Of a stretch of 33,788 bases of DNA, positions 1-25,773 are shown one piece after another (the first letter of the stretch is position 1; every line of letters begins with the position of its first letter). This DNA comes from a virus, in the IMG/VR virus record IMGVR_UViG_2910170622_000001, positions 1-33,788 of that record. One strand, 5' to 3'. The notes beneath the pieces are model-generated. The model searched no databases, was not told the origin of the DNA, and was given only the letters and a program-made list of their open reading frames with translations. The translations under genes and the position numbers were made by a program.

Positions 1-1074
1 TTGTCTGAACCTATCCCTAGAGCCGTGACTACCTACTTCCGCCCCGCCATTGATGCGATGACTGGCTACGTGCCAGGTGAGCAGCCAAAGTCTGACACAC
101 CCATCATTAAGCTAAATACCAACGAGAATCCTTATCCGCCCTCTCCAGCAGCGATCGCAGCGTTGCAAACGCTTAAGGCTGAGTCACTGCGACGGTATCC
201 TGATCCCTACGCCAATGAGTTTCGGCAGGCGATCAGTGAAGCGCTCGGCGTGCCGATGGACTGGATTATTGTGGGCAACGGCAGTGACGATATCTTGAAT
301 ATCATCATTCGTGCGTGCGCTGAAACTGAGCGCAAAGTAGTTTATCCGGTACCGACTTATGTGCTGTATCGCACCTTAACTGCAATGCAGCCAGCGGACA
401 CGATCGAGATTCCCTACGGAGACGACTATCGCTTGCCGATTGCGGAACTAATTGCTGCGAATGGTGCCGTTACCTTTATTGCGTCGCCCAACAGCCCTTC
501 TGGTCATGTGGTGTCGATCGCTGAACTACGCCAACTAGCGGCAGGGCTTACGGGTGTTCTGGTGGTTGATGAGGCATATGTTGACTTTGCCGAAGAAACT
601 GCATTGCCGCTGGTACAGGAATTTGATCATGTGATTGTAACGCGCACGTTATCTAAAGGGTACTCGCTAGCAGGGTTGCGTCTCGGTTTTGGCATCGCTA
701 ATCCAACGCTGTTGAGTGGCTTGTTCAAAGTCAAAGACAGCTACAACATTGATGCGATCGCGGGGTTAGTAGGTGCCGCTGCTATGCGCGATCAGGCGTA
801 CAAAAATGAGTGTGCTGCCAAAGTCAAAACTTCGCGGGCAGCGCTGGCGATCGCGCTTAAGCAACTGGGTTTCCGCCTGTGGGATTCGCAAGCTAACTTT
901 TTGTTGGTGCAGCCGCCCCAAAGCAATGCTGAACAAATCTATTTAGCACTTAAAGAGCGCGGCATTTTGGTGCGCTACTTCCATCAAGCTGGTTTAAGCG
1001 ACAAGTTGCGCATTACCGTTGGCACGGACGAGCAAAACCAGGTGTTGGTGGAAGCGCTAATCCATTTGGTGTAG
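1..1074 (+). CDS. hisC: Histidinol-phosphate aminotransferase (PLP-dependent); true start possibly GTG at 25
   Basis: Motifs KLNTNENPYPP, GNGSDD, SPNSPSG, DEAYVDF and the PLP-lysine motif TRTLSKGYSLAGLRLG; ~350 aa. Confidence 0.97.
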   Translation: MSEPIPRAVTTYFRPAIDAMTGYVPGEQPKSDTPIIKLNTNENPYPPSPAAIAALQTLKAESLRRYPDPYANEFRQAISEALGVPMDWIIVGNGSDDILNIIIRACAETERKVVYPVPTYVLYRTLTAMQPADTIEIPYGDDYRLPIAELIAANGAVTFIASPNSPSGHVVSIAELRQLAAGLTGVLVVDEAYVDFAEETALPLVQEFDHVIVTRTLSKGYSLAGLRLGFGIANPTLLSGLFKVKDSYNIDAIAGLVGAAAMRDQAYKNECAAKVKTSRAALAIALKQLGFRLWDSQANFLLVQPPQSNAEQIYLALKERGILVRYFHQAGLSDKLRITVGTDEQNQVLVEALIHLV

Positions 1075-1092
1075 CAGTCCGCTGACGTAAAT

Positions 1093-1320
1093 TCAGCCTG
1101 GTTCTATGTCGCCGTCCTGGCTAGCTGTTGTCTCCTCGTTCTCTGCCATCGCTTCTTGCACAAAGATTCTAGCAAGGCGATCGTACATACCTGCGCCGAT
1201 GTATTGCGGATACTTGTGCAAGCAGCTACAAACTGGGCGCAAAGCGGTTGTGGTCGTGCGAGAATGGCAGCAAAGCGCGATCGACCACCCCATCACCAAA
1301 GGCGACAATGGCACGGTCAC
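1093..1320 (-). CDS. Small hypothetical phage protein
   Basis: GTG start overlaps the upstream TGA (GTGA coupling); last gene of the minus-strand operon. Confidence 0.45.
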   Translation of the reverse strand: MTVPLSPLVMGWSIALCCHSRTTTTALRPVCSCLHKYPQYIGAGMYDRLARIFVQEAMAENEETTASQDGDIEPG

Positions 1321-1475
1321 TCCTGACTCAACCGATCGCACAACGCCTTAGCTCTCCGTTCAGCCAGCGCGATCGCCAAACCCGTAGGCATCCACCAGGG
1401 CATCGCATTAAGCGATTGTACGAATGCGTATCTTCTGAGTGTTTCTGGTGACTCGATCCAAGTTAGTTCAGCCAT
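1317..1475 (-). CDS. 52-aa hypothetical protein (MAELTWIESPETLRRYAF...), not in the ORF track
   Basis: ATG overlaps the end of 1468-1851 (ATGGCTGA) and its stop overlaps the next GTG; coupled on both sides. Confidence 0.6.
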   Translation of the reverse strand: MAELTWIESPETLRRYAFVQSLNAMPWWMPTGLAIALAERRAKALCDRLSQE

Positions 1476-11707: not shown

Positions 11708-12949
11708 TCAAAAGTTAAGCCCTGCTTCTGCTAGGCGTTTGTTTCTAGCCGCCCCTTTCGCTCTATTGGTTTCTGCTGCTGCTGTAATTGCCTGCTTCGA
11801 TGGCTTGTTCTTTCCTTTCTTTGGTGCCGACTGTCGTGAGAAATCAGAGAAGCCTGATTTACTCCGAGATGAGGCAGACTTAGAGACGTTTGATAGCGCT
11901 TTGCCTTTCTCGGGAGTAATGCCTCTCAACCTGTTTTGCTCCACACGCTTCTTGTCAACAGCAGCCCGTTTAGTGCCGTCGCTAAACTTTTCACGTAGTT
12001 GCTGAGTGCGTTCCTGATTCTTCTTGACTTGAGTTTTAGGGTTGCAATTCTTGCTAGCAGGGATCGAGTAACCACCAGGACACTTCTTGCCTGTGCCAGT
12101 TTTTTTATCAAACCGCCACAGTTCGCCCTCTGAGTCAACCCGGTACTCTTCTTCTGTGGTGTCAAACACTGGCACCATGTCAGCAGCGTCAGCATGGCAA
12201 CCGCAGTCATCTAGCCCCCGTTCTTTAATCTCAATGTAGAGATCCATCGGTACCCAGAAAGGACGTTTGCCCTGTGGGGTCGTTAGCTCAATCTGATATT
12301 TATCTGCCACTGGTGCATCCTTACGAACAGTCGGTATTGGTGCTTCAATAGCGGGTTCAATCTGCCATGCGATGTCATTCGTATCAGCGGAGTCGAATCT
12401 AAAAGTTTTGATTTTTGCGCCAGCAGCTCTTGGCTTAGAGCAGACTGCCATGTGGTCTTTACGCATAGGCTCATCTTGCAAAGCGTCAAACGCTTCCCCA
12501 TGCCACTCGCCAGCGTCATTTCTTACGTTCGTTTCATAGCCAACGCTCACGCCATCTTTGCGACCAAAACGGATGTCGTCTTGCGTTTCAGGGTCATAAA
12601 CATCAAAGGTTACTTGCACCCGTCCATCGTCAAAGACATGGACTTTGTTCTGAGTTCTACCGACTTGATACTTTTCTAGTAACGCATCATCATTCCGAAG
12701 CAGGCAGGGAGGATGCTCTCTAGTTACGGGTAAATCAGCTAACTGAGCTACTAACGGTTTTCCATCGCTATCTGTTCGTCGCAAAAACTCGCGCGATACT
12801 AATTCACGACGAGTTGATCCATCAGCATTTCGATACGTTAAAATCCCAGGCTCACGAGCGATCGCGGTGACAGTCATCACTCCATCTCTGGAGTCAAAAC
12901 GCTCGATCGTTGCTAATTGATTAAAGCGAATTGCTGTAGCCAAGGGCAT
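11708..12949 (-). CDS. DUF2213-type prohead maturation protease with basic C-terminal extension
   Basis: IAREPGILTY, RRELV, LPVTREHP, GVSVGY, DHMAVCSKPRA motifs. Confidence 0.88.
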   Translation of the reverse strand: MPLATAIRFNQLATIERFDSRDGVMTVTAIAREPGILTYRNADGSTRRELVSREFLRRTDSDGKPLVAQLADLPVTREHPPCLLRNDDALLEKYQVGRTQNKVHVFDDGRVQVTFDVYDPETQDDIRFGRKDGVSVGYETNVRNDAGEWHGEAFDALQDEPMRKDHMAVCSKPRAAGAKIKTFRFDSADTNDIAWQIEPAIEAPIPTVRKDAPVADKYQIELTTPQGKRPFWVPMDLYIEIKERGLDDCGCHADAADMVPVFDTTEEEYRVDSEGELWRFDKKTGTGKKCPGGYSIPASKNCNPKTQVKKNQERTQQLREKFSDGTKRAAVDKKRVEQNRLRGITPEKGKALSNVSKSASSRSKSGFSDFSRQSAPKKGKNKPSKQAITAAAETNRAKGAARNKRLAEAGLNF

Positions 12950-13001
12950 AATGTAATCACGCAGTCAATACCTTGTTCTACCCCTTGCCACCCTGCCTAA
13001 G

Positions 13002-13232
13002 ATGAAATCGTTGGAAAGTCCAACACAGCAAGAACTTCGCCGTCGCTTTGTCGGCAACTTTAAGAACGCAGTTGAGCGATCGGCGTACAGCGATACTCAG
13101 TTGACAGACATGATGGGATTGCACCGCACTGCCATTTATGAAATTGTCAACAGTGGCAGAAAGGTCGATCCAGCAGAGCTATCCGGTTGGTGTCGTGTCC
13201 TGTGCGTAAGCTTTCAGGATTTAGTGGGATGA
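13002..13232 (+). CDS. XRE-family helix-turn-helix protein
   Basis: SDTQLTDMMGLHRTAIYEIVNSGRKVDPAELSGWCRVLCVSFQDL. Confidence 0.8.
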   Translation: MKSLESPTQQELRRRFVGNFKNAVERSAYSDTQLTDMMGLHRTAIYEIVNSGRKVDPAELSGWCRVLCVSFQDLVG

Positions 13233-13489
13233 CCGTTACAGTCACCATTACGGACACTCAGACAGGCAGGCAGATGGCTTTGCCTGTTGACTGGGACAAT
13301 GACGACGCTTTGTGGTGTTCTGGCAACAATGACTGTGATTGCAATCTTGGTCTGCTTTTAGGTGTTTGGAGGCTTGAGGATGCAGTTTGTGGTGATACAC
13401 GTTTTGAGGTAGAGGCGATCGACGAGCAAGGCTTACTCTGGCGGCGTGGTGTTGACGGCAATGAGTACGATCGGGAGTTAGTTGAATGA
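13229..13489 (+). CDS. Small Cys-containing hypothetical protein (W.SGN.DCDCN...CG..RF)
   Basis: ATGA coupling at both ends; possible Zn ligands. Confidence 0.65.
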   Translation: MTVTVTITDTQTGRQMALPVDWDNDDALWCSGNNDCDCNLGLLLGVWRLEDAVCGDTRFEVEAIDEQGLLWRRGVDGNEYDRELVE

Positions 13490-14016: not shown

Positions 14017-14038
14017 AAACCTACAAAAAATATAAGAA

Positions 14039-14497
14039 ATGGAAGGAAGAGGTAGAGGTAGACCGTCAAAACTAACACCAGCAGTCAGAGAAAAGCTGGT
14101 GCAAGCGTTGTTGGCTGGCAACTATATCGAGCCTTCCTGTGCCTATGCAGGGGTGTCTTATGTTTCCGTCCGTAATTGGATGAATAAAGGCGAGCAAGCT
14201 ACTTCGGGAGAGTTCAGGGACTTTTATTCAGCAGTAACTAATGCGATCGCCCAGGCTGAAATCTCGACAGCAGCCCACATCAAAGGGGCTGGCAAGGATG
14301 ATTGGCGAGCGTCAGCATGGCTACTAGAGCGCAGACACCCCGATCGCTGGTCAAATACGCAACGGGTCAAGATTGAAGTCGAAAAAGAGTTAGAGCAAAC
14401 GTTAGCCAAACTGCAAACCAAACTACCTGAAGATGTCTTCATCCAAATCATCGACGCTATCGCTGATGCAGAAGCTAGCGAGGAAGAAACAGGCTGA
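14039..14497 (+). CDS. terS: Terminase small subunit
   Basis: GRPSKLTP HTH, AGVSYVSVRNWM, DWRASAWLLERRHPDRW; immediately upstream of terL. Confidence 0.82.
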   Translation: MEGRGRGRPSKLTPAVREKLVQALLAGNYIEPSCAYAGVSYVSVRNWMNKGEQATSGEFRDFYSAVTNAIAQAEISTAAHIKGAGKDDWRASAWLLERRHPDRWSNTQRVKIEVEKELEQTLAKLQTKLPEDVFIQIIDAIADAEASEEETG

Positions 14498-16100
14498 GTT
14501 CAAATCCAGGCAGAAAATTGCTAATGAGCAGATTAGCCTAGCGACGTTTGTTAAAGAAAGCTGGCATGTTTTAGAGCCGGAAACGACTCTAGCTTGGAAC
14601 TGGCATATTGATGCCATGTGTGAGCATATCCAGGAATCACTACTGGACTGGTTGCGACACAAACAAGACTCAAACTATAAGCAGCGCATCCAAAACCTTT
14701 TAATTAATGTGCCACCTGGCAGTCTTAAGTCTAGAGTCGTCAGTGTTTGTGCCCCCGCATGGTTTTGGACTATCTGCCCTTCATGGCGTGCTATCTTCCT
14801 TTCTTCTAACCCTCGTGTAGCCTTGCGAGATAGCGCCTATTGCCGGGACTTAATTGAAAGTGAATGGTATCAGAAACGCTTTAAGCCTGACTGGAAGCTG
14901 CGTGTTGATACAAACGCTAAGTCGCTTTATTGGAACACCAAAGGTGGGCAAAGGGCATCTTTTGGTTTCAATTCACGGATTACGGGCGATCGCGGCGACT
15001 GCATTTTGGTAGATGACCCTCATGATGCTAAAGAGATCGAATCAGATTTGCTGCGTCAAGCTGTCCTCGATCGCTGGGATAGTGCCATCCGTAACCGGGT
15101 CAACGACTTGCGATCGTCTGTTCGTATCGGCATCATGCAGCGCTTACATCAACTTGACTGGTCCGGGCACGTTTTACAGGAAGGTGACTGGGCGCTTCTT
15201 TGTATCCCTCAAGAATTTGAAGCACCACAAGCACCAACACCGCTCGGCTGGGTAGACCCTCGAACCGAACCGGGGTCATTGATGTTTGAAGAACGCTTCC
15301 CTGAGTATGTTTTAGAGAAAGAGAAACTTGTTTTAGGTTCGTATGGTTACGCAGGACAGCATCAACAGAAACCTGCGCCATCTGAAGGAGGGATGTTTAA
15401 GCTGGCGAATTGGCGTGTGTATGTGCCAAGCGCTGCGCCTAGGTTCACTCGCATGATTCTGAGCTGTGATGCTGCTTTTAAGGGCACAAAAGATTCTGAC
15501 TATGTGGTTGTGCAGGCGATCGCGCAGGTTGCCGATGTGCATACGGTGTTAGATCAGGATGGGAAGCCGATGCTGTTCTCTGATTACTATCTGCCCTACC
15601 AAGCACGATCGCGTGTGGGCATAAGTGGCACCGAGACAATGATCAGAGAAACGTCAAATCGTTACCCAGAAGCGTATACAAAACTGATTGAAGATAAGGC
15701 AAACGGACCCGCAGTGATTGAGCGATTGAGTAGTGAGTTAACAGGCATCACACCATTTAAGCCAGGGATGAACAGCAAGCGATCGCGTGCGTGGTCAATT
15801 CAGCCAATTCATGAAAGGGGTGGTATTTTACTGCCTGCTTCTGACGCTGTTGCGGCAGCGCTTGAGTCAATGGGTAAAACCTCGATTACAGTAGGTGAAT
15901 GGTGGGAATTACATCCACCGCTGCATAAGACAAATGCTGAGTACGCACCAGTACAAGAATGGTGCAAAGCGTTAATGGATGAATTCGCTCAGTTCCCTAA
16001 CGCTGCCAATGACGATCAAGTGGATGCGCTCGATCAAGGCATTATCTGGCTCGAAGCTAACAAGCCACAAAAAACAGGTATGGACCTGCTTTGGGCTTAA
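14466..16100 (+). CDS. terL: Terminase large subunit (start probably MQKLARKK)
   Basis: Walker A LLINVPPGSLKS, Walker B ILVDDPHD, IMQRLH, nuclease motifs SCDAAFK..DSDY, IEDKANG, FPNAANDDQVDA. Confidence 0.95.
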   Translation: MQKLARKKQAEFKSRQKIANEQISLATFVKESWHVLEPETTLAWNWHIDAMCEHIQESLLDWLRHKQDSNYKQRIQNLLINVPPGSLKSRVVSVCAPAWFWTICPSWRAIFLSSNPRVALRDSAYCRDLIESEWYQKRFKPDWKLRVDTNAKSLYWNTKGGQRASFGFNSRITGDRGDCILVDDPHDAKEIESDLLRQAVLDRWDSAIRNRVNDLRSSVRIGIMQRLHQLDWSGHVLQEGDWALLCIPQEFEAPQAPTPLGWVDPRTEPGSLMFEERFPEYVLEKEKLVLGSYGYAGQHQQKPAPSEGGMFKLANWRVYVPSAAPRFTRMILSCDAAFKGTKDSDYVVVQAIAQVADVHTVLDQDGKPMLFSDYYLPYQARSRVGISGTETMIRETSNRYPEAYTKLIEDKANGPAVIERLSSELTGITPFKPGMNSKRSRAWSIQPIHERGGILLPASDAVAAALESMGKTSITVGEWWELHPPLHKTNAEYAPVQEWCKALMDEFAQFPNAANDDQVDALDQGIIWLEANKPQKTGMDLLWA

Positions 16101-16126
16101 TAAAGAAGGGGTGCTGAAACACCCCT
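16099..16126 (-). terminator. Hairpin GGGGTG-TTTCAG-CACCCC followed by TTCTTTATT on the minus strand
   Basis: Perfect 7-bp stem 16107-16126; U-rich tail only on the minus strand. Confidence 0.55.
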
Positions 16127-16181: not shown

Positions 16182-19100
16182 ATGGCAACACAAAACGGCA
16201 ATGGCAACGGAAATGGATCGGTCGTAGCGCACTGGGATGATATGGCATCGCTCGGTGCTGCCCTCTCTGGTGGGATCTATAACCCACAGACAGGTATGGG
16301 TATGGTCGGCACTGACCCTAGCCGATCGGCATCGGTCTTCTACGGTGGCAGGCTAGAGCGTGAACAGCAAGAAAGCTTGTTCCGCAACTATGGCTTGCTG
16401 CGTAAAGTCGTGTGCAATATCCCCAGAGCTGCCACTTACCGATGGGGTACGCCCACATTGCCAACGGGTAGCAGTGCCAAGCTTAATGCACTGATTGATG
16501 CACTTAACCAGATCCCAATCCATAGCGCTCGTCACGTCTACAAAGGAGCTAAGAAAGGCTTTCAAGAAGCGCTCAAGACTGCGTTTCTGACGGGTAACTC
16601 TGCCCTCGTTATGGATGCGGATGATGGGTTGCCATTGGATCAACCGCTGAACCTGAAGCGACTTAACAGCGTTAGAAAGCTGTGGCTGTTTAGCCGGTGG
16701 CAACTGGTGCCAGATGACCGATCGCTGACGGTGCTGCGGCAATCTGAGCACTTTGAGATTGTGGACCACAGGGCGATGGATGCACCTGAAGCGAGTTGGC
16801 GTATCCACCGATCGCGTGTGCTGTGGTTCCGTGGTGCTGAACTAATCGACGGGTATACGGGCAGCTATAACCAGGGCTGTGATGATTCGATTCTGCAAGC
16901 GATGTTGGAGTCGTTTTACCTCTATACGAACGGGGTGAAAGGGGCAGGCAGAATGCTGGAGGATTTTGATTTCTATGTACACAAAATCACTGGTCTGCTA
17001 GGCAAACTCGAAAGCAATCCGCAGAAAGCACAGCAGGTCATATCAGCACGACTGGAGATCAACCGTCAGCGGCGATCGAACTTCCGCGACATGGTGATTG
17101 ACAAGGAGAACGAAGAAATCGCCCCTGTCAGTCGCCAAGTCGGTGGTTATAGCGATATGCTCGACCACTGCAAGAACTACCTCTTAGCGTCCACAGACTA
17201 CCCGCCTTCTGTGCTGTTTGGTGAGTTTAGTGCTGGGTTGAACGCGACAGGCATGGAAACATCCGAGCGGCAAACGTGGAACGATACGACTGCACAGGCA
17301 CAGCAGGATAAGTGCGAAGACAATGTTTTAACACTGGCTAACGTGTTGTGTGCGGCAAAGAGTGGACCCACACAAGGCAACGAACTGAAAGGGCTTGCAT
17401 GGCATTGGCACGTCCTCTATGCACCATCCCCTGAAGAAAACGCAGGGCTACAAAGCCAGTTCGCCACGATGCTATCGACCTTGGCACAAGTTGAGCAAAG
17501 TGTGATCGGTCAGGTTGGCATCCGCACGCTGTGGGGACAGAACGAGTTTAACCAGAACCTTGTACTGCCTAAGAACTACGTCAAGTTTCTGGATGACGCG
17601 ATCGCCGCTGCCGTTATTCCACCGCCACCTGAAGAGGAGATGTTAGGCGAGGCAGAGTTAGAGGGCGAAGAATTTGAGGGTGAGGAGCAACTAGCGCTAG
17701 AGGGCAATGATCAAGATCAGGCGATCGCTGACGAACTACTAGACGACCGCACCTTGCTCGACTCCAACGACGTTTTCTTCCTCTACCACCTAGACGCTAG
17801 TACACGCAGCGAACTCCTAGCGAAGGTCAAAGCTAAGAACGAGAGTTTAGCCAAGGGTAAGAAGTTCAACGCCTTCGGGAAAACAACGGCTGAGATTAGG
17901 GCGTTTGTAGGCGAAGGTGGTGATTCACCTGCTAGTAAGTCTAAGGGCACTGCCAAGCCTGCTAGCGGCAAAGCAGGCAAGTATCAGACATCTAAGACCA
18001 GTGGTGCCATTGCCAATGCGATCGCCCGTAAAACGGGTGCTAAGGCAGAGGATATTGAGCAGGACTTGCGCGGCAAGATTCAGAAGGCGATCGACAAAAA
18101 GCGGCGTGACCTGAAAAAGGCAGGCAAGGAAGTCACAGACAAGGATCTGCGTCAGGCTGCACGCGATGTTGTGAAGATTGAGGCGAAGGGTGCGATCGCT
18201 AAAGCTAAAGGTGAACCGATTGCACCAGAGAAAGCCATCGTTAAGAAGCCGAAAGCGACTAAAGCTAAAGCGGTTGAAACTCCTGAAGCGGCAGAGCCTA
18301 AGAAGACGAAGACTGCCAAGAAGAAAGTGGTCGAAGTCGAGCCTAAGCCTATGGAAGAGAAGCCCGTCAAAGCTACTAAACTTAAGGAAAAAGCTAAGGA
18401 TAAACTAAATGTCGGAACAGAAACCAAACCCCAAAAACAAGAAAAATCAGGAAGTAAGACCGGAGAGGTTCGTGGAGCAGCCGGAGGACGTGAACCTGTT
18501 CCTGAAACCGACGAAAAAGAAAGAAAAAGAGCGTTAGAGACGCACGATGTTATTAAAGGCGACTTGTCACGAGATCAAAAAATAGATCGTATTGCCGAAA
18601 TTACAGGACTGGACAAAACTAAAGCCGAGTTTGCTTTAGACGGTATTTCTACCTTCACAAGTGATGCAGGTGAGATAAGACAGTTCGAAATTGGTCAACC
18701 TCTTAAAAGCGACGATCAAGAATACAAAGATGGAGTCAAGGAGAGTGCTGACGGGACAAATCTTTATGTTCGCTCCATGCCTAAATTCAAAGGCGAAATA
18801 CACAGAGGACTTAAATTCAACACAGACGAGGAGAGAGACAAGTTTATTTCATCTGTATCTAACGGGTTTGAGTTGCAAGCTTTAAGTAGTTTTTCATCTG
18901 ATCCCGCGATCGCGCTTCGGTTTAGCGTGGGTATGAAGAAAAAGCCAGGTGTAGTCATAAGCGTCAAATCAAATACAAAAGGAGCTTCCGTAAAAGGAGT
19001 TTCTTCAGTCCCAGCCGAGGATGAAATTGTTGTTCCTAAAGGAGCAAAGTACAAAGTAGTTAAGCAATACGTGAAAGATGGCACTGTCCACCTCGACGTA

Positions 19101-20456
19101 GAGGAAGACGACGACGTTAAGCCACAAGTCGCAACGCCTCCTGTTAACTCTAAAGCGGTGCCAGCTAATAAGCCCAAGCAATCGCCGCGCGCCGACTCTT
19201 ACGAGCAAATCAACTTTAAGCCACCCGTCGAGGCACGACAGGCGTGCAAGAAAGGGCTAGAACTGCACAAAGCAGGCAAGTCAGGCAGTGGTATTGAACC
19301 TGCCACGATTAAAGAGGCAATGGCGATCGCGCAAGGTAAAGCTGTTACCCCTGAAAAGGTCGAAAAGGCGTACAGATGGTTTGCCCGCAACAGTCGCTTT
19401 GCAAGTGCCCCTGAAGGCTCTGGCGCTCACACCGACTGGCTAATTTGGGGCGGCGAACCTTTCAAAACATTCGTAGGCAAAGTAAAGCGGCAGATGGAGG
19501 CAGCACAGGGAGAGCAATCGGACTCTTTTGCTGATGAAAGGCTAAAACTTGATGCGACATGCGGCAAAGGATGGGTAGGGTCAAAACCGCCGGGTTGCAC
19601 TAGAGCAAAGAAGGGGCAACCAATACCGACAGCAGCTAAACCAGAAACTACACCAGTTGCTAAAGAAACCGCTCAACCATCAAAAGCTGCACCCGCAGAG
19701 CAAAAAAACCGTACTGCTGGATCTCACTCTATTTTTAGTCGCAGACTGGTTCAAGCTGAAGGTGATGAGCCAGAAAAAGCAGATATTGAGGCGATGGCTT
19801 CCCAGTTAGAGCAAAAACTGGGGCTAACAAAAAAAGAAGCGAAAGAAACTATTTCTAGCGTCACCAGTTTTACAGGAGATAACTACACAGCGATTCGTAA
19901 AGCTGAACGTGAAGGCAAGCCAACAAAAGAAGGTAAGGCGATCAATCGTTATATCGAAAAAGCGCCAAAATATGACGGCGAAATTTATAGGGGTTTATCG
20001 TTTAAGACCACTAAAGAGCTTGATGACTTCCTGAATACTGCTAAAGAAGGTTCGTCAATGAAACCTGACGCTGTATCAAGTTTCAGTAGCGATCGATCTA
20101 TTGCCGAACGATTTTCTAAAGATTCTGGCAACCAAAACTCGGTTGTTCTTAAAGTCAAACAAAACCGTAGCGGGGCTTCCATACAAGACTTGACACTATA
20201 CCCAGAAGAAGGCGAGGTGCTTGTGCCTAAAAACACGACCTACAGAGTAGCTTCAGTGAAAAGAAAGGGCAACACTGTAGAGATTGAATTGGAGGATACC
20301 GCACCTCCACTTGAAAAAAGCAAAGTGGAAGAGAAGAAGCCTGCCAAAGAAACTAAAGTGCAATCGTTCAATTCGCAAGCAGCGATCGCCAAATTCAAGG
20401 AAGGCAAGCCGCTAAGTCAAGAAGAAGCAGCATTTATCAAACAATTATTAGGCTAA
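16182..20456 (+). CDS. DUF1073-type portal protein fused to a Lys-rich linker, two R-S-E ADP-ribosyltransferase domains and a helical phage-head domain
   Basis: N-terminal ~480 aa with LLRKVVCNIP, RIHRSRVLWFRG, DSILQ, PPSVLFGEFSAGLNATG; ART1 HRG/SSFSSD/AEDEIVVP; ART2 YRG/SSFSSD/EEGEVLVP; FKPP..RQACKKGLE...WLIWGG domain. Confidence 0.88.
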   Translation: MATQNGNGNGNGSVVAHWDDMASLGAALSGGIYNPQTGMGMVGTDPSRSASVFYGGRLEREQQESLFRNYGLLRKVVCNIPRAATYRWGTPTLPTGSSAKLNALIDALNQIPIHSARHVYKGAKKGFQEALKTAFLTGNSALVMDADDGLPLDQPLNLKRLNSVRKLWLFSRWQLVPDDRSLTVLRQSEHFEIVDHRAMDAPEASWRIHRSRVLWFRGAELIDGYTGSYNQGCDDSILQAMLESFYLYTNGVKGAGRMLEDFDFYVHKITGLLGKLESNPQKAQQVISARLEINRQRRSNFRDMVIDKENEEIAPVSRQVGGYSDMLDHCKNYLLASTDYPPSVLFGEFSAGLNATGMETSERQTWNDTTAQAQQDKCEDNVLTLANVLCAAKSGPTQGNELKGLAWHWHVLYAPSPEENAGLQSQFATMLSTLAQVEQSVIGQVGIRTLWGQNEFNQNLVLPKNYVKFLDDAIAAAVIPPPPEEEMLGEAELEGEEFEGEEQLALEGNDQDQAIADELLDDRTLLDSNDVFFLYHLDASTRSELLAKVKAKNESLAKGKKFNAFGKTTAEIRAFVGEGGDSPASKSKGTAKPASGKAGKYQTSKTSGAIANAIARKTGAKAEDIEQDLRGKIQKAIDKKRRDLKKAGKEVTDKDLRQAARDVVKIEAKGAIAKAKGEPIAPEKAIVKKPKATKAKAVETPEAAEPKKTKTAKKKVVEVEPKPMEEKPVKATKLKEKAKDKLNVGTETKPQKQEKSGSKTGEVRGAAGGREPVPETDEKERKRALETHDVIKGDLSRDQKIDRIAEITGLDKTKAEFALDGISTFTSDAGEIRQFEIGQPLKSDDQEYKDGVKESADGTNLYVRSMPKFKGEIHRGLKFNTDEERDKFISSVSNGFELQALSSFSSDPAIALRFSVGMKKKPGVVISVKSNTKGASVKGVSSVPAEDEIVVPKGAKYKVVKQYVKDGTVHLDVEEDDDVKPQVATPPVNSKAVPANKPKQSPRADSYEQINFKPPVEARQACKKGLELHKAGKSGSGIEPATIKEAMAIAQGKAVTPEKVEKAYRWFARNSRFASAPEGSGAHTDWLIWGGEPFKTFVGKVKRQMEAAQGEQSDSFADERLKLDATCGKGWVGSKPPGCTRAKKGQPIPTAAKPETTPVAKETAQPSKAAPAEQKNRTAGSHSIFSRRLVQAEGDEPEKADIEAMASQLEQKLGLTKKEAKETISSVTSFTGDNYTAIRKAEREGKPTKEGKAINRYIEKAPKYDGEIYRGLSFKTTKELDDFLNTAKEGSSMKPDAVSSFSSDRSIAERFSKDSGNQNSVVLKVKQNRSGASIQDLTLYPEEGEVLVPKNTTYRVASVKRKGNTVEIELEDTAPPLEKSKVEEKKPAKETKVQSFNSQAAIAKFKEGKPLSQEEAAFIKQLLG

Positions 20457-23400
20457 TTATGATTAATCATAAAAAGTTTGGAGACACTGACAGTAGTTTT
20501 TGGAGCATAACACCATCTGAACCGAAAGCCGATGCATTCCCCAAGTACGATCGCCGCGTGTTAATTCACGGTTGCACGATCGGCATCACGCACCCAGTTG
20601 GTAGTCATCGCTTCCCCAACGGCAAACCACTGATTGCAGCGTATGGGCACTTACTCGGCACCTCAGACCGATCGCGCCACTCTTCCAGCGCTGACATCTA
20701 TCTCGGCAACGAGCCAGAGTCAACGCAGTTATGGAAAGTGACTCAGACGAAGCCAGATGGACTCTTTGATGAGTACAAGTATTTTGCTCATGTCAAAGAT
20801 GCAGCACAGGCGAGGGCATTACATCGCTACCACGTTGGGGGCGATCGCTCTGGGCAAGTAGAACCTGCTGATTGGTCAGAACTCAAAACAAACCGCTGAG
20901 AGAAATCCTTATGCCGACATTGACTGAGATGGAAAGACTAGCCGATCGCTACTCGATGCCGATCGCTGAAGTTGTGGCAGTGATGGCTGCGAGAGAGGAT
21001 GCTGAATGCGGCAGAGGGTGGCAAGGGAACAAGCCAGGTTGCACTAGGGCTAAAAGCAAAGCGTCTTCCTCAAATACAACAGCAGTTAAAAAAGAATCTG
21101 CCCCACAACAAGTAGAGAGAAAGGCTAAGACTAAAGCAGTTGAAGCAAAACCAAAAGATAAATCAATAAAGGAAGCCGAAAATGGATCAAAAGTACCTGG
21201 ACGAGTTACACGAACTGGAAGCAGCAGCGGGGTCAGCACTGGCGGCAACACAGAAGCCGAAACCCTCCAATCAAGCGGAATCAAAACCGATGCCGATAAA
21301 AAAGAAGTAGAAAAAAATCTAAGGTCATGGATTTCAAAGAATGCAGACCTTAGAGGCAAAAAGGATGCGCCTAAAACACTAGAAGATAACGCTAGTATTG
21401 CGTTTGAGATACTTGATAAAGTCGAATCTGGCGAGAGTTCCTTTACAGGGATTAAAGATAAAAAAGGGAATCTGCAAGCTGCCGCGATCGTTAAGGAAGG
21501 CAAAGACCACCTAGAAATTGAGTATTTAGCAACGGCACCTTGGAATATCGCAGGGAAGGACAAGAAGGCTGTCAGAGGTGCTGGCACTGCCGCCATGGCG
21601 TCTGTCATTGCTGAAAGTGTGAATAAAGGGCACGGTGGCAAAATTAGGCTTGATGCACTGCCAGGTGCAATTCCTTTCTACGAAAAAATAGGCTTCAGTG
21701 TCACTGGCAAAACGAAAGGCGGCAACGACGGCGTGATGTCTATGGAGCTAACACCACAAGCGGCTAATGCTTTTCTTGAAAAGATTGGGAAGAAAGCCAA
21801 AATGGATTCATTGCACCCATCAACCGCTTCACTAATCAGCGCGATCGCAAAGTATCAGCAGCAAGGCTACGACATAGCACCAGCGATCGACTCTATCCGC
21901 AGCGATGGCAAGTGGCAACCTTGCGGCAAAGGGTACGCACCCCCAGGCACGTGCAAGAACGGCAAGCCGGAAGCAAAGGGTAAAACTGCTACAAGTCGCC
22001 ATATCCTTAACCCCAACGCTGACCTGAACTCAAGCGCGGGGCAGAAAGAGGCAGTGGGCAGAACGAGCCGTATCAATCAGTTGGTCGATAAGCTGGCAAA
22101 CGGTCGGTTTAAGGTCACTCCAGACGATCCAAACAAGGCGGGTAAGATGGGCGCTCTCACCGCCATGCGTGACGCTAAGAACCCTAACATCGGGTTGATT
22201 ACTAGCCACAACGCTAAAGACGGCATCACAGGAGCAATGTCTTACAAAGAGGGTCGGAACACTATCACAGTGCAGAACTTTGGCGCTGATGGTTCTGCTA
22301 AAGGCTCTGGCTCTGAAATGTTCAATCAGTTGTTGCTTCATGCTGCCAAGCAGGGCAAAGGGTTAGAAGCTTCATCAGTGGAAGGGGCAAAGGGTTTCTA
22401 TAGCAAGATGGGCATGACTGACGAAGGCTATGGGCAATTCTCTATGTCGAAGCGTGATGTTGCTGCTGCCGTTGCCAAGTTGAATGCTCGCACTGATTCA
22501 AGGTTAGATGCCACTACAAAGAACTCACCACCTAAGCCATGCGGTAAAGGTTGGCAAGGCACAAAGCCAGGTTGCACTAGAGCGGGGAAAGGGCAACCCA
22601 CCCCTACAAAGTCAGCAACACCGAAAGCAGCAACACCAGTTGCCAAAAAGAGTAAAGCGACAACCAAACCACAGCCATCAGACGACCTTGAAACGCTGAA
22701 GAAAAACTATGAAGAACGGGATGCTCGATCGCTTGGTGGCGTTACAAGCAAATTCAGCGATGTGGGCAATATGATGCAGCTTTACGCTGATGAAATTAAG
22801 TCAGCAGGTAAAGGCGATAAAACATTGACTGCTGCTTTCGATCGCGGTGAGCGTAACTGGAATCCTGCGCTAGTGGTTGAGACAGACAAAGATCAGTACG
22901 AAGCGATCGGTGAGAGTAGCAACCGGACGATCGCGGCTGCTAAAGGGTCGAAAGAAGGTCGAGCATTTAGCATCATCGTGCCAAATAATCCTGATCAGAT
23001 TGAACTTGCCAAAATGCTGCAAGTGCCTGACAAAAAGAACCCAGCGGTAATGGGCAAAGAGCGGGCAGACGACAAAGAAGACAAACAATCGTTTGACTAT
23101 GGCAATTACATCAGTGCCTACTCAGACACGATCGCGTCCCCCTCTGGCAAACGTCAGCACGAAGGCACCGACGAGCAAATCGAAGCCGCTGCCAAGAAGT
23201 TGTTAGCGACGAATGGGCGTAACTGGGTGCCGATCGTCGTGAAGCCGACTGGTAAGAATGAAGCAGGCGACGAGCAGTTTGAAGTGGTGGGCAACCACTT
23301 CGCCTATGATGTGGCACGCAAAGCAGGATTAGAGCGCATTTGGACAGTTGTAGCTGATGACACTGTGAACGCTGCCAAACCAAAGACAAAACAGACTAAG

Positions 23401-24729
23401 GCTGACTCTATGCACCCATCTACAGCAGCACTGATTAGCGCGATCGCCAAATATCAGCGCTTAGGCTACAACGTTGATAGCGCGATCAACTCGCTCAGGC
23501 AAGATGCCCGCGGCGAGGGAGTTGCTTGTGGTAAATCTTTTATTAGTCCTAGAGCCAAATGCAGCAAGGAAAAGTCTAAAACAACTTCCAAGGAAGCGTT
23601 ACAGAAGACTACAGCGAAGGCAAAAGCACGACAGCAGCTAAGGGCAGAAGTCGAGGGGCGTGGCAAGCCTAAGTCCAAAGGCATGACCAAAGCAGAAGTC
23701 TCAGAGATGATGGCTAACCCTGAAGCGGAAGCCGCACGACTGGCTGTGATGGGCTACCCCAAAGTCGAGCCATCCGCCCGATCGCGCCGGATTGCAGGCT
23801 TAGTCGATGACCTGAAGACCACTGCCAAAGCAGAGGATAAGAACGCCGATCGCATTCAGGCAGTTGCCGCTGAAGCGCTGAGTCGTCTAGGCATTGAAAC
23901 TACGCCATCGAAGACACAGACACAGCCAACTAAGCTACCCGCAGGAGGATCAGGTAAGCAACGGTTACAAGCAGCGATGGAAGGGCTGAAGGCCAATACT
24001 CAGGCTGACTTGGTGAACGCTGCCCAAGGGCTAGCTGTGGCACAAGTGGCAGTCAACGAGTTGACCAAGCAGGCAGAGAAAGATAAGCAGAAGGAGAAGA
24101 GAGCGATCTCACCTACACCAGAAGAAGGCTCAACTGCTGCTATGTACGAACGCAGAGCGCGTGAGTTTGAGCAACGCAAGGAGCAACAGCAGCGTGATCA
24201 ACAGAAACTAGCAACCGCTGACTTAAGCAAACTCACACCAGAGCAGCGTCAAGTAGCAGCACAAATTCAGCGCAAGGTAGAACAAGGTTTCACGATCGAC
24301 CCTGCTATCACCAAACAACGGCGTGAAGAGATTCAAACGAAGCTAACCAGACAAGGCAGGCTAGGGCGTAAAGAGCTTTTTGAGAACCTAGCAGCGTGGC
24401 AGGCAGAAGACGAAGTGCTGAGAAAGTTGGGCTTCCCCACCGCTAGCGATCGCCCTAAGCCTACTCTCAAACCCAAAGGCATCACTTCTGCCCCCCAGTC
24501 GTCACGCGGTAGAAGTGGCACCGCAGGCGATAACCCTAACTACAGGGGCAAATATGGCTACGTTAGCGTCGATTCACTGTCACCTTCTACCGGGTCACTG
24601 ATTAGCGCGATCGCTAAGTACAAAGCAGATGGGTTTGACGTTACACCAGCGATCGAGGCTTTTAGGAAGGATGCAGCGTGTGGCAAAGGTTGGCAAGGTA
24701 CAAAGCCACCAGGCTGTACTAGGGCTAAA
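19560..24729 (+). repeat. Dispersed coding repeat A: CG(K/R)GWxGxKP(P)GCTRA at 19560, 21007, 22540, 24679; variants at 21922 and 23527
   Basis: Visible in protein and DNA (tg[ct]gg[ct]a[ag]agg.tgg...cc[ag]gg[tc]tg[ct]actag). Confidence 0.9.
20459..20899 (+). CDS. Phage inorganic pyrophosphatase-like (InPase) domain protein, degenerate
   Basis: ITHPVGSHR, AAYGHL.GT, DIYLG, Q.KPDG.FDEYK match the phage InPase pattern; the usual DGD motif is missing. Confidence 0.65.
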   Translation: MINHKKFGDTDSSFWSITPSEPKADAFPKYDRRVLIHGCTIGITHPVGSHRFPNGKPLIAAYGHLLGTSDRSRHSSSADIYLGNEPESTQLWKVTQTKPDGLFDEYKYFAHVKDAAQARALHRYHVGGDRSGQVEPADWSELKTNR

Positions 24730-25773
24730 AGTACAAAGCCTAGCCCAGAGAAGACAGTTGCAAAGAAAGCGCCACCAAAAGCTGTCAAAACAACAGAACT
24801 TAAAAAAGAAAAGGCACCCAAAAAACAAGCCGCTAAAGCAAAACCAGAAGTAGCTGATGACTCTGTGAAGAATGGAGTTGTCAAAGCGAAGGCAGGCGAT
24901 TTAAACCCAGTTAAGCTGACTGCTGATGAGATGGTTAACATATCAGATCGCTTAGACAGTATCGACACTAGCGCTAACGGCGACAGGATTGGGGCAGCTT
25001 GGGCAAAAATACAAGGTTTTGACGGCAAACCAGAGCTTTCCTCTAAGGCAGATATGGATGCTGCTATAGCTAGGGGCGAGACAGCAACGTATAGAGGGGT
25101 GGCTCTTGAGAGTCATGCCAAACAGCTTCAAACTGGTGAGCTATTTGTTGGAGGTGGTTTGTTTGGCGACTCCATCTATACAGCAGTCGATAATCCACCG
25201 GGGTTAGGTTACAAGACTGCAAGCGGTTATGCAGGCGAAGGCTCAACAGTAGTCAGGATGTCGATCAAGCCTGGACTGAAAATAGTCAAGCACGATGCCT
25301 TGATTAAAGAAATGGAGGAAGCCGCGGAAGATTTCAAGGAGAAAAAAGCACCGTTAATTATTCAGAAAGAAACCGAGCGCCTAAACAAGACTGTCAGCTT
25401 GAAAAAGGTTGACAGCAAGACAGATGCAATGTCGATCGATGGCGTTGATGCAGGACAGGTTAAGAAGGTAGGAAAGTTTTATCGCACGATCCTACCTGGG
25501 TATCGTCGTGAAGAAGACACCAAATTCAAAACACCCGAAGAAGCTCAAGAGTCTTTGAAAAAGCGAAAAATGTCAGAACTGGCAGAATTGAAAGTAGCAA
25601 AAGTCTACGACAATTTCTTTCTCAATGAAGGTACATACGCTTCTGCCCGTGGCTATGACGGCTATAGTATTGCCAATACTAAAGGGGGCAAAACACCTCT
25701 AGCTGATTACACAATGATTACCAACAGGACTGCATTAAGAATGCAGTCTGAACTACTGAGCAAGCAGTCATGA
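20911..25773 (+). CDS. Polyvalent effector polyprotein: GNAT, GNAT, ParB-like x2, coiled-coil, C-terminal ART-like domain, separated by repeated modules
   Basis: GNAT1 IEYLATAPWN..RGAGT..DALPGAIPFYEKIGF; GNAT2 KGSGSEMF..AKGFYSKMGM; ParB-like RNWVPIVVK..FEVVGNHFAYDVARKAG; ART-like YRG..G.GLFGDSIY..ASGYA..GYDG..ITNRTAL. Confidence 0.82.
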   Translation: MPTLTEMERLADRYSMPIAEVVAVMAAREDAECGRGWQGNKPGCTRAKSKASSSNTTAVKKESAPQQVERKAKTKAVEAKPKDKSIKEAENGSKVPGRVTRTGSSSGVSTGGNTEAETLQSSGIKTDADKKEVEKNLRSWISKNADLRGKKDAPKTLEDNASIAFEILDKVESGESSFTGIKDKKGNLQAAAIVKEGKDHLEIEYLATAPWNIAGKDKKAVRGAGTAAMASVIAESVNKGHGGKIRLDALPGAIPFYEKIGFSVTGKTKGGNDGVMSMELTPQAANAFLEKIGKKAKMDSLHPSTASLISAIAKYQQQGYDIAPAIDSIRSDGKWQPCGKGYAPPGTCKNGKPEAKGKTATSRHILNPNADLNSSAGQKEAVGRTSRINQLVDKLANGRFKVTPDDPNKAGKMGALTAMRDAKNPNIGLITSHNAKDGITGAMSYKEGRNTITVQNFGADGSAKGSGSEMFNQLLLHAAKQGKGLEASSVEGAKGFYSKMGMTDEGYGQFSMSKRDVAAAVAKLNARTDSRLDATTKNSPPKPCGKGWQGTKPGCTRAGKGQPTPTKSATPKAATPVAKKSKATTKPQPSDDLETLKKNYEERDARSLGGVTSKFSDVGNMMQLYADEIKSAGKGDKTLTAAFDRGERNWNPALVVETDKDQYEAIGESSNRTIAAAKGSKEGRAFSIIVPNNPDQIELAKMLQVPDKKNPAVMGKERADDKEDKQSFDYGNYISAYSDTIASPSGKRQHEGTDEQIEAAAKKLLATNGRNWVPIVVKPTGKNEAGDEQFEVVGNHFAYDVARKAGLERIWTVVADDTVNAAKPKTKQTKADSMHPSTAALISAIAKYQRLGYNVDSAINSLRQDARGEGVACGKSFISPRAKCSKEKSKTTSKEALQKTTAKAKARQQLRAEVEGRGKPKSKGMTKAEVSEMMANPEAEAARLAVMGYPKVEPSARSRRIAGLVDDLKTTAKAEDKNADRIQAVAAEALSRLGIETTPSKTQTQPTKLPAGGSGKQRLQAAMEGLKANTQADLVNAAQGLAVAQVAVNELTKQAEKDKQKEKRAISPTPEEGSTAAMYERRAREFEQRKEQQQRDQQKLATADLSKLTPEQRQVAAQIQRKVEQGFTIDPAITKQRREEIQTKLTRQGRLGRKELFENLAAWQAEDEVLRKLGFPTASDRPKPTLKPKGITSAPQSSRGRSGTAGDNPNYRGKYGYVSVDSLSPSTGSLISAIAKYKADGFDVTPAIEAFRKDAACGKGWQGTKPPGCTRAKSTKPSPEKTVAKKAPPKAVKTTELKKEKAPKKQAAKAKPEVADDSVKNGVVKAKAGDLNPVKLTADEMVNISDRLDSIDTSANGDRIGAAWAKIQGFDGKPELSSKADMDAAIARGETATYRGVALESHAKQLQTGELFVGGGLFGDSIYTAVDNPPGLGYKTASGYAGEGSTVVRMSIKPGLKIVKHDALIKEMEEAAEDFKEKKAPLIIQKETERLNKTVSLKKVDSKTDAMSIDGVDAGQVKKVGKFYRTILPGYRREEDTKFKTPEEAQESLKKRKMSELAELKVAKVYDNFFLNEGTYASARGYDGYSIANTKGGKTPLADYTMITNRTALRMQSELLSKQS

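Follow-up and report, generated by a model that had tools for sequence, protein, structure and literature searches.

Two putative ADP-ribosyltransferase domains fused to the sole portal protein of a provirus

Phage portals form a dodecameric ring at one vertex of the capsid, and the portal nucleates procapsid assembly. Why, then, would a portal protein continue for 944 residues beyond its portal domain, and why would two ADP-ribosyltransferase (ART) domains be among them? This question is raised by a gene in the stretch of DNA analyzed here (the window), which comprises the first 33,788 nucleotides (33.8 kb) of IMG/VR virus record IMGVR_UViG_2910170622_000001, a 108.9-kb provirus that itself lies within a 516-kb contig. 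We consider it fairly likely that this phage uses its sole portal to load the two ARTs into the head and that the ARTs are then released, probably by a protease, and injected for takeover of the host.

The portal gene and its reading frame

The gene runs from ATG to stop codon as one open reading frame (ORF; Table 1) without internal stops and encodes a protein of 1424 residues and 155.7 kDa. From the N terminus onward, this protein comprises a PF06381 portal domain, a charged linker of 315 residues, a first ART (ART1), a helical domain of ~110 residues, a two-cysteine module, a second ART (ART2), and a short tail. A preliminary description of the same DNA had proposed a single gene of this kind, with a DUF1073-type portal at about residues 1 to 480 and two ARTs in frame behind it. 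The ORF, the Pfam matches, and the positions of the catalytic motifs all bear this proposal out, and the domain coordinates given there were right to within a few codons. The hidden Markov model (HMM) searches that it had suggested, with DUF1073 and ADPrib_exo_Tox, returned matches well above the cutoff for the portal and ART2 and a match at the very edge of the cutoff for ART1.

Table 1. Positions of the portal fusion gene, its parts, and neighboring genes, in window coordinates
Feature	Coordinates	Residues	Strand	Basis or remarks
Whole portal-cargo fusion gene	16182..20456	1424 aa	+	ATG to stop, one ORF
Portal domain, PF06381 Phage_portal_3 (formerly DUF1073)	16182..17621	1-480	+	Pfam, PHROG
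Linker	17622..18566	481-795	+	Acidic stretch, LLDS525 and HLDA536, conserved module 536-678, K/A/E/P-rich spacer
ART1, putative R-S-E ADP-ribosyltransferase	18567..19115	796-978	+	Borderline Pfam match, paralogy to ART2, profile against Vis
Middle domain, all-helical, uncharacterized	19200..19526	~1007-1115	+	Flanked by RADS1003 and QSDS1112 / KLDA1122
Two-cysteine module, CGKGWVGSKPPGC	19560..19598	1127-1139	+	Just upstream of ART2
ART2, putative R-S-E ADP-ribosyltransferase	19788..20306	1203-1375	+	Pfam, AlphaFold2 model, Foldseek, profile against Vis
C-terminal tail and stop codon	20307..20456	1376-1424	+	Translation
Prohead (head maturation) protease, DUF2213 family	11708..12949		-	phrog_530, E = 2.5e-22; Pfam PF09979, E = 2.7e-15
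InPase gene	20459..20899	146 aa	+	Starts 2 nt past the portal stop; Pfam PF18823, E = 9e-14
Multidomain protein	20872-25773	1633 aa		After the InPase gene; GNAT domain, 'virion structural protein' PHROG match

The portal domain gave a near-full-length Pfam match to PF06381 (residues 63 to 429, model positions 3 to 353 of 357) with a score of 112.3 bits against a gathering score of 33.8, and this match was confirmed on the DNA. The domain also matched the portal family phrog_146 (E = 1e-45) and shares 56% identity with the portal of a related fusion protein (P0002) and 30% identity with the portal of Synechococcus phage S-CBS4. Its gene directly follows those of the terminase subunits, the position expected of a PF06381 portal, and no other match to PF06381, PF04860, or PF05133 was found in the 108.9-kb record. 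Because the fused gene is the only detectable portal in the record, every portal subunit must come from it.

The linker behind the portal domain is rich in charged residues (K+R, 21%; D+E, 19%) and matched no Pfam or PHROG family. Its module at residues 536 to 678 aligns in frame with the equivalent segment of P0002 at 65% identity, with a ratio of nonsynonymous to synonymous substitution rates (dN/dS) of 0.151; the value for the portal domain against P0002 is 0.148. Portal and linker are thus under purifying selection (dN/dS, ~0.15). The idea that the linker might conceal a MuF domain was rejected, as hhalign against the MuF profile returned a probability of 0.1% and both Pfam and PHROG searches were negative.

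An open frame of this length might also be produced by a sequencing or assembly error that masks a stop codon or a frameshift just past the portal, in which case the ARTs would belong to a separate gene, for example, one for a MuF-less minor head protein. The exact protein is known from a single contig, and the evidence for it is assembled sequence. However, the frame stays open over 4.3 kb, within which no rival ORF of more than 76 residues occurs on the same strand. The segment just past the portal is conserved in frame (dN/dS, 0.15) with P0002, a 1478-residue portal fusion from an ENA assembly that is independent of this record. Fusions of portals with cargo recur in Logan, ENA, and NCBI assemblies, and 6 of 29 long ART carriers have a portal domain. 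Farther downstream, ART2 and the ART of another relative, P0005, differ by fewer nonsynonymous changes per site (pN, 0.27) than synonymous changes per site (pS, 0.80), a comparison reported only as pN < pS because the synonymous sites are saturated. Given the conserved frame, the low dN/dS, the pN below pS in ART2, and the recurrence of portal-cargo fusions, an artifact is so improbable that we accord it almost no weight.

ART domains, other cargo modules, and their relatives

Both ART domains carry the full set of residues expected of R-S-E ARTs. The preliminary description had read HRG, SSFSS, and E-D-E in ART1 and YRG, SSFSS, and E-G-E in ART2, and exactly these motifs were found, as H-R875-G, SSFSS at residues 902 to 906 (S903-x-S905), and E946-D-E948 in the former and as Y-R1270-G, SSFSS at residues 1299 to 1303 (S1300-x-S1302), and E1343-G-E1345 in the latter. 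The R, S, and both Glu residues are invariant throughout the ART1-type subfamily (n = 16). Three of these residues (Arg, central Ser, and second Glu) are likewise invariant among ART2-type homologs (n = 42), and the fourth, the first Glu, corresponding to E1343, is present in 41 of the 42. Vis was the best match of both subfamily profiles (ART2 type, E = 4.8e-20; ART1 type, E = 6.5e-15), and the Arg, STS, and ExE of the two profiles align to the YRG, STS, and ExE of Vis. Both domains match the family HMM, ART1 only marginally, and have their R, S-x-S, and E-x-E elements aligned to solved enzymes.

For ART2, the family assignment extends to the predicted structure. Residues 1268 to 1373 matched the ADPrib_exo_Tox and ART families in Pfam (E = 1e-12), with ADPrib_exo_Tox (PF03496) scores of 34 to 48 bits against a cutoff of 23.4, and the domain also matched phrog_832, annotated as "RNA polymerase ADP-ribosylase" (E = 2e-8). 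An alignment-based AlphaFold2 (AF2) model of ART2 has a mean predicted local distance difference test (pLDDT) score of 95.6. A Foldseek search with this model returned Tre1 first (6dre_B; E = 5e-13; template modeling [TM] score, 0.66 to 0.72), with further matches to Vis, C3 exoenzymes, ExoS/T, Certhrax, C2-I, and HopU1, all at a probability of 1.00. By this model, ART2 has the ART fold. ART1 and ART2 are paralogs that share 34% identity across 194 residues (E = 5e-29), and this identity suggests that ART1 adopts the same fold.

An E-x-E loop is generally accepted as marking an R-S-E ART as arginine directed. The preliminary description had taken it as such a sign here, and the nearest solved relatives (Vis, Tre1, HopU1, and Vip2) are indeed arginine specific. 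Judged by their residues, both ARTs appear to be catalytically intact, and they are predicted to act as arginine-type mono-ADP-ribosyltransferases. T4 Alt, ModA, and ModB are ARTs with different targets. Since ART1 and ART2 are only 34% identical and each falls into its own conserved subfamily, it is plausible that they, too, have different targets.

The domain between the two ARTs is modeled by AF2 with a pLDDT of ~98 and has the signature PPxxVRxAxxRGL...RN.RF...LWGG. It belongs to no Pfam or PHROG family, and a fold search against the PDB returned generic helical matches only (Z ≤ 5.1). Its homologs are nevertheless numerous, and among 37 carriers we found 13 prohead proteases and 8 portals, with 2H phosphoesterase, InPase, or MuF domains on others. 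These partners suggest that the middle domain is an unnamed, promiscuous head-associated module, and we regard it as a candidate for a new family of head-associated domains.

The two-cysteine module that follows is 44 to 55% identical to three sites of the 1633-residue protein encoded downstream, in which five copies or variants of the module occur (at residues 46, 351, 557, 886, and 1270). A further variant is found in the tail of the prohead protease, at residue 290. The consensus, CGKGW(Q/V)GxKP(P)GCTRA, nearly always lies a few residues past an x-D-[A/S/G/K] site. The module is common to three proteins of the head module and may serve as a tag or as an element of junctions. P0005 ends with a conserved ELEDTAPPLEK, beyond which the present protein extends by ~45 residues.

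We searched exhaustively with residues 780 to 1424 using HMMER, which returned 1,939 representative clusters, and described the architectures of the best 150. In the matches, ART1, the middle domain, and ART2 are found as separate modules. Within the best 150 clusters, tandem arrays of 2 to 9 ARTs are common, a portal is joined to one ART in five clusters and to the middle domain in four, and the order of portal, ART, middle domain, and ART is found only in the present protein. The 29 long ART carriers include five with MuF, three with NUDIX, and two with InPase, and their six portals are divided equally between Phage_portal_3 and Portal_Mu (three each).

The cargo also differs from one related portal to the next. 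P0005, which is syntenic with the window and of the same portal lineage, has a single ART that is 61 to 62% identical to ART2, and its next large gene has an InPase. P0002 has an InPase cassette placed precisely between TLLDS and HLDAS, two motifs that are adjacent in the present protein. Because ART, InPase, and the middle domain alternate on related portals, the portal acts as a swappable cargo carrier. The same type of ART is found on a different carrier in P0004, which consists of MuF followed by two ARTs. An NCBI-derived locus (L005) contains a MuF gene of its own in addition to a portal-ART from a different lineage, and therefore the two kinds of carrier can coexist. In the cultured phages PaMx28 and DLP4, a related ART ends a minor head protein of ~1190 residues encoded right after the portal, and PaV-LD has a related ART in a minor head protein of 360 residues. 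No cultured phage record covers most of the fusion protein, and a megablast search of the locus against cultured phages gave no match.

Two further architectures were observed among these relatives. Four metagenomic proteins, P0080 (3020 residues), P0018 (2857 residues), P0071 (1450 residues), and P0024 (1814 residues), have 5 to 9 tandem copies of the same ART type, arrays much larger than the pair in the portal fusion. L005 also encodes, at 14032-16116, a 694-residue protein that joins NUDIX to a DUF2213 (Pa193_gp24) protease-family domain, another case of cargo fused to a head assembly protein.

Proposed packaging and release of the cargo

How might such cargo reach the host? Structural work has established that the portal C terminus faces the capsid interior, and therefore a C-terminal fusion should place its cargo within the head, with every domain present in 12 copies. 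The C terminus of this ~156-kDa protein, extended by its cargo, would thus point into the head, and the dodecameric portal would bring in each cargo domain 12-fold with no need for an additional targeting signal. The task of carrier, performed elsewhere by MuF or by a capsid-targeting peptide, would in this way pass to the portal. The preliminary description had seen no MuF gene and suggested that the portal may replace MuF as the carrier. We found no PF04233 or PF06152 match in the fusion protein or anywhere in the 109-kb record, nor is the linker MuF-like, and since P0004 bears an ART-ART pair of the same type on MuF, it is reasonable to think that the portal has taken over this role.

Once inside the head, the cargo would probably be freed by the DUF2213 prohead protease, which would cut at short junction sequences of the form x-[L/A]-D-[S/A]. 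The freed domains would leave with the DNA at ejection, and the ARTs would then modify arginines of cyanobacterial host proteins at the onset of infection, as T4 Alt does. Proteolytic release and subsequent delivery into the host cell are both plausible steps, and we consider this route the likeliest because the cassettes are bounded by recurring motifs and occur free or on other carriers and because a protease is encoded in the head module. The total of up to 24 ARTs at the DNA exit channel, as given in the preliminary description, assumes a fusion that stays uncleaved.

Several points weigh against this explanation as a whole. The [RKH]xD[SAG] cleavage motif was not enriched (5 occurrences versus 3.3 expected; P = 0.24), its bias to interdomain positions was not significant (P = 0.21), and a search of the literature on DUF2213 protease specificity yielded nothing useful. 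Twelve extensions of 104 kDa amount to ~1.2 MDa of protein inside the head. ART1, scanned alone, scored only 23.5 bits for ADPrib_exo_Tox against a cutoff of 23.4, and an AlphaFold run on ART1 and the middle domain gave a poor model of ART1; the latter result says nothing about the fold, as MAFFT had misplaced all ART1-type rows of the alignment. The portal lineage is rare, with no relatives in GTDB genomes or IMG/VR scans. Finally, the proposed route as a whole draws on sequence and models only. We keep the cleavage motif as a hypothesis, for which the position of the InPase cassette of P0002, between TLLDS and HLDAS, provides qualitative support.

With a cleavage motif that lacks statistical support, the ARTs may instead stay tethered to the portal ring and never be injected. 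Their site of action would then be the portal vertex, the interior of the procapsid, or the cell that produces the particles. Candidate substrates would be proteins that take part in packaging, of phage or host origin, modified, for example, to counter defenses that sense the portal or the terminase; DNA, modified during packaging, would be a less likely substrate. A tethered cargo would accord with the conservation of the linker module at residues 536 to 678, which, being under purifying selection, appears to be more than a disposable spacer. It would also accord with an earlier suggestion that ARTs attached to head components may counter immune systems that target the portal or the terminase (Iyer 2022; PMC9503650). 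However, the cargo is bounded by recurring short motifs and swaps among portal, MuF, stand-alone, and polyvalent contexts, which fits releasable cargo better. A prohead protease is present, and the nearest structures are those of protein-arginine ARTs and not of DNA-modifying ARTs. We therefore regard permanent tethering as unlikely, if worth bearing in mind.

That the element is a provirus and that the cargo is polymorphic among related portals might point in yet another direction, namely, to a polymorphic antibacterial toxin of the MuF-like kind, which would serve lysogen fitness or interbacterial competition and be neutralized in the lysogen by immunity proteins. The closest structure, Tre1, is an interbacterial toxin, and Bxa, a MuF-ART from a prophage, is likewise toxic to bacteria (PMC11699363). 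On the other hand, no ARH or macro domain hydrolase was found in the whole record, the gene directly downstream encodes InPase cargo and not a small immunity-like ORF, and there is no MuF domain. The ARTs are, moreover, joined to a structural protein that is essential and whose synthesis is confined to the late lytic phase. A small nonenzymatic immunity protein is conceivable, but that neither a hydrolase nor any other obvious immunity gene was seen favors host takeover over a toxin-immunity system. An antibacterial role for these ARTs seems quite improbable to us.

The portal fusion might be one arm of a larger, dedicated system for modular cargo loading in this lineage of cyanophages, an extension that we put forward tentatively and think possible rather than probable. 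In such a system, the portal, the protease tail, the InPase gene, and the 1633-residue polyprotein would all present cassettes bounded by x-[L/A]-D-[S/A] and tagged with CGKGWxGxKPGC, and the DUF2213 protease would excise each of them in the head. The result would be a cocktail of defined stoichiometry, in which the helical domain and two ARTs with different targets are each present in 12 copies, with more cargo from the polyprotein. The helical domain would be either an injected effector of a new class or a module that binds DNA within the head.

We know of no portal-effector fusion that has been characterized experimentally. Fusions of portals with ARTs and other effectors have already been described by comparative genomics (PMC9503650, PMC5512222), and among them the present protein is one with an unusually rich cargo. 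Iyer et al. reported in 2017 that InPase, PBECR, and 2H domains occur as fusions with portal or MuF (PMC5512222), and ART, InPase, 2H, PBECR, and Nudix domains on these carriers have been read as head-packaged, injected effectors (PMC9503650, PMC5512222). None of the head-fused effectors in these papers was characterized, as both are purely computational (PMC5512222, PMC9503650). Like the head-fused effectors and polyvalent proteins of Iyer and coworkers, the present protein has effector enzymes on a portal within a terminase-portal module and is adjoined by an InPase gene and the 1633-residue protein. With two ARTs and the middle domain, and with TerL, InPase, and the GNAT-bearing 1633-residue protein as neighbors, it has the two or more effector-type domains and the packaging or late context by which polyvalent proteins are recognized. 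Unlike the examples of Iyer and coworkers, it combines a PF06381 portal with ART, helical domain, and ART, an arrangement unique among the best 150 clusters.

Another close parallel is found in the MuF toxins as defined by Jamet et al. in 2017 (PMC5576092), among which the prophage MuF-ART Bxa has been shown experimentally to ADP-ribosylate arginine (PMC11699363). Isolated Microbacterium phages have both portal-MuF and MuF-VIP2 fusions (PMC7302621). In common with these toxins, including those of Microbacterium phages Percival and Goodman (PMC7302621), the present protein is a head protein at the portal vertex with a C-terminal R-S-E ART. It differs from them in that the carrier is the portal itself, in that 12 copies per head are expected, compared with 1 to 2 for SPP1 gp7 (cited in PMC5576092), and in that there is no ARH-type immunity gene here. 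MuF toxins have an N-terminal MuF domain (PF04233, PF06152, MuF3, or MuF4) and adjacent immunity genes. Because the fusion matches neither PF04233 nor PF06152, it is not a MuF toxin, although it probably works like one. The portal-MuF fusions of Microbacterium clusters EA3/EA5/EA8 and EB (PMC7302621) are similar in another respect, as their portals, too, are extended in frame by a head-internal protein. In those fusions, however, the portal has MuF without ARTs, whereas here it has ARTs without MuF.

T4 Alt is a head-packaged and injected arginine ART of RNA polymerase, which is a free protein with an N-terminal capsid-targeting sequence and is trimmed by gp21. The present protein shares with Alt the R-S-E ART, the predicted packaging in the head, and the predicted delivery with DNA, and ART2 matches phrog_832; it differs in having two ARTs and in being targeted, presumably, through covalent fusion to the portal. 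Vis of Vibrio splendidus and Tre1, a type VI secretion system (T6SS) effector of Serratia, have the same ART fold and the same R / S-x-S / E-x-E site, and both are arginine directed. Unlike the portal-borne domains, they are free or T6SS-delivered toxins and not parts of a virion protein, and their identity to these domains is only ~22 to 24%.

If the cargo does enter the head in active form, a virion would contain a constant dose of 12 + 12 ART domains, positioned at the vertex from which DNA exits, and the gene would be a clean natural example of covalent portal loading. It may offer an experimental entry into how large portal-fused proteins are accommodated, released, and ejected and into which cyanobacterial proteins phage ARTs target. 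The swappable ART, InPase, and helical cassettes suggest a general design rule for engineering phage-head cargo. Both the unnamed helical domain and the shared architecture of Cys modules and junctions merit attention of their own.

Neighboring genes and host

Upstream of the portal, on the same strand, lie a ParB-like gene, TerS (14039-14497), and TerL (14433-16100), and the genes for the DUF2213 protease, a cement protein, and the major capsid protein are divergent to the portal. The ~0.5 kb (12950-13486) between these leftward capsid-side genes and the rightward run of ParB-like, TerS, TerL, and portal genes presumably contains divergent late promoters.

The product of the InPase gene adjacent to the portal is likely to be co-packaged cargo. 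We observed that the carrier of InPase varies, the domain being stand-alone here, within the portal fusion in P0002 (L006:189-4625), and part of an 864-residue Hva1_TUDOR-InPase protein in L004 (10675-13269). Linker and Cys modules of the portal fusion recur in the 1633-residue protein that follows, which has the appearance of a typical polyvalent head protein.

An abundance of HIP1 is a hallmark of cyanobacterial genomes. In the window, HIP1 (GCGATCGC) occurs 46 times, compared with ~0.5 expected from base composition, which corresponds to 1.36 per kb, and it is also dense in the related loci L004 and L006 (1.5 per kb in L006). From this HIP1 density alone, we infer that the host is cyanobacterial. 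The prophage sequence itself has acquired the HIP1 signature of its cyanobacterial host.

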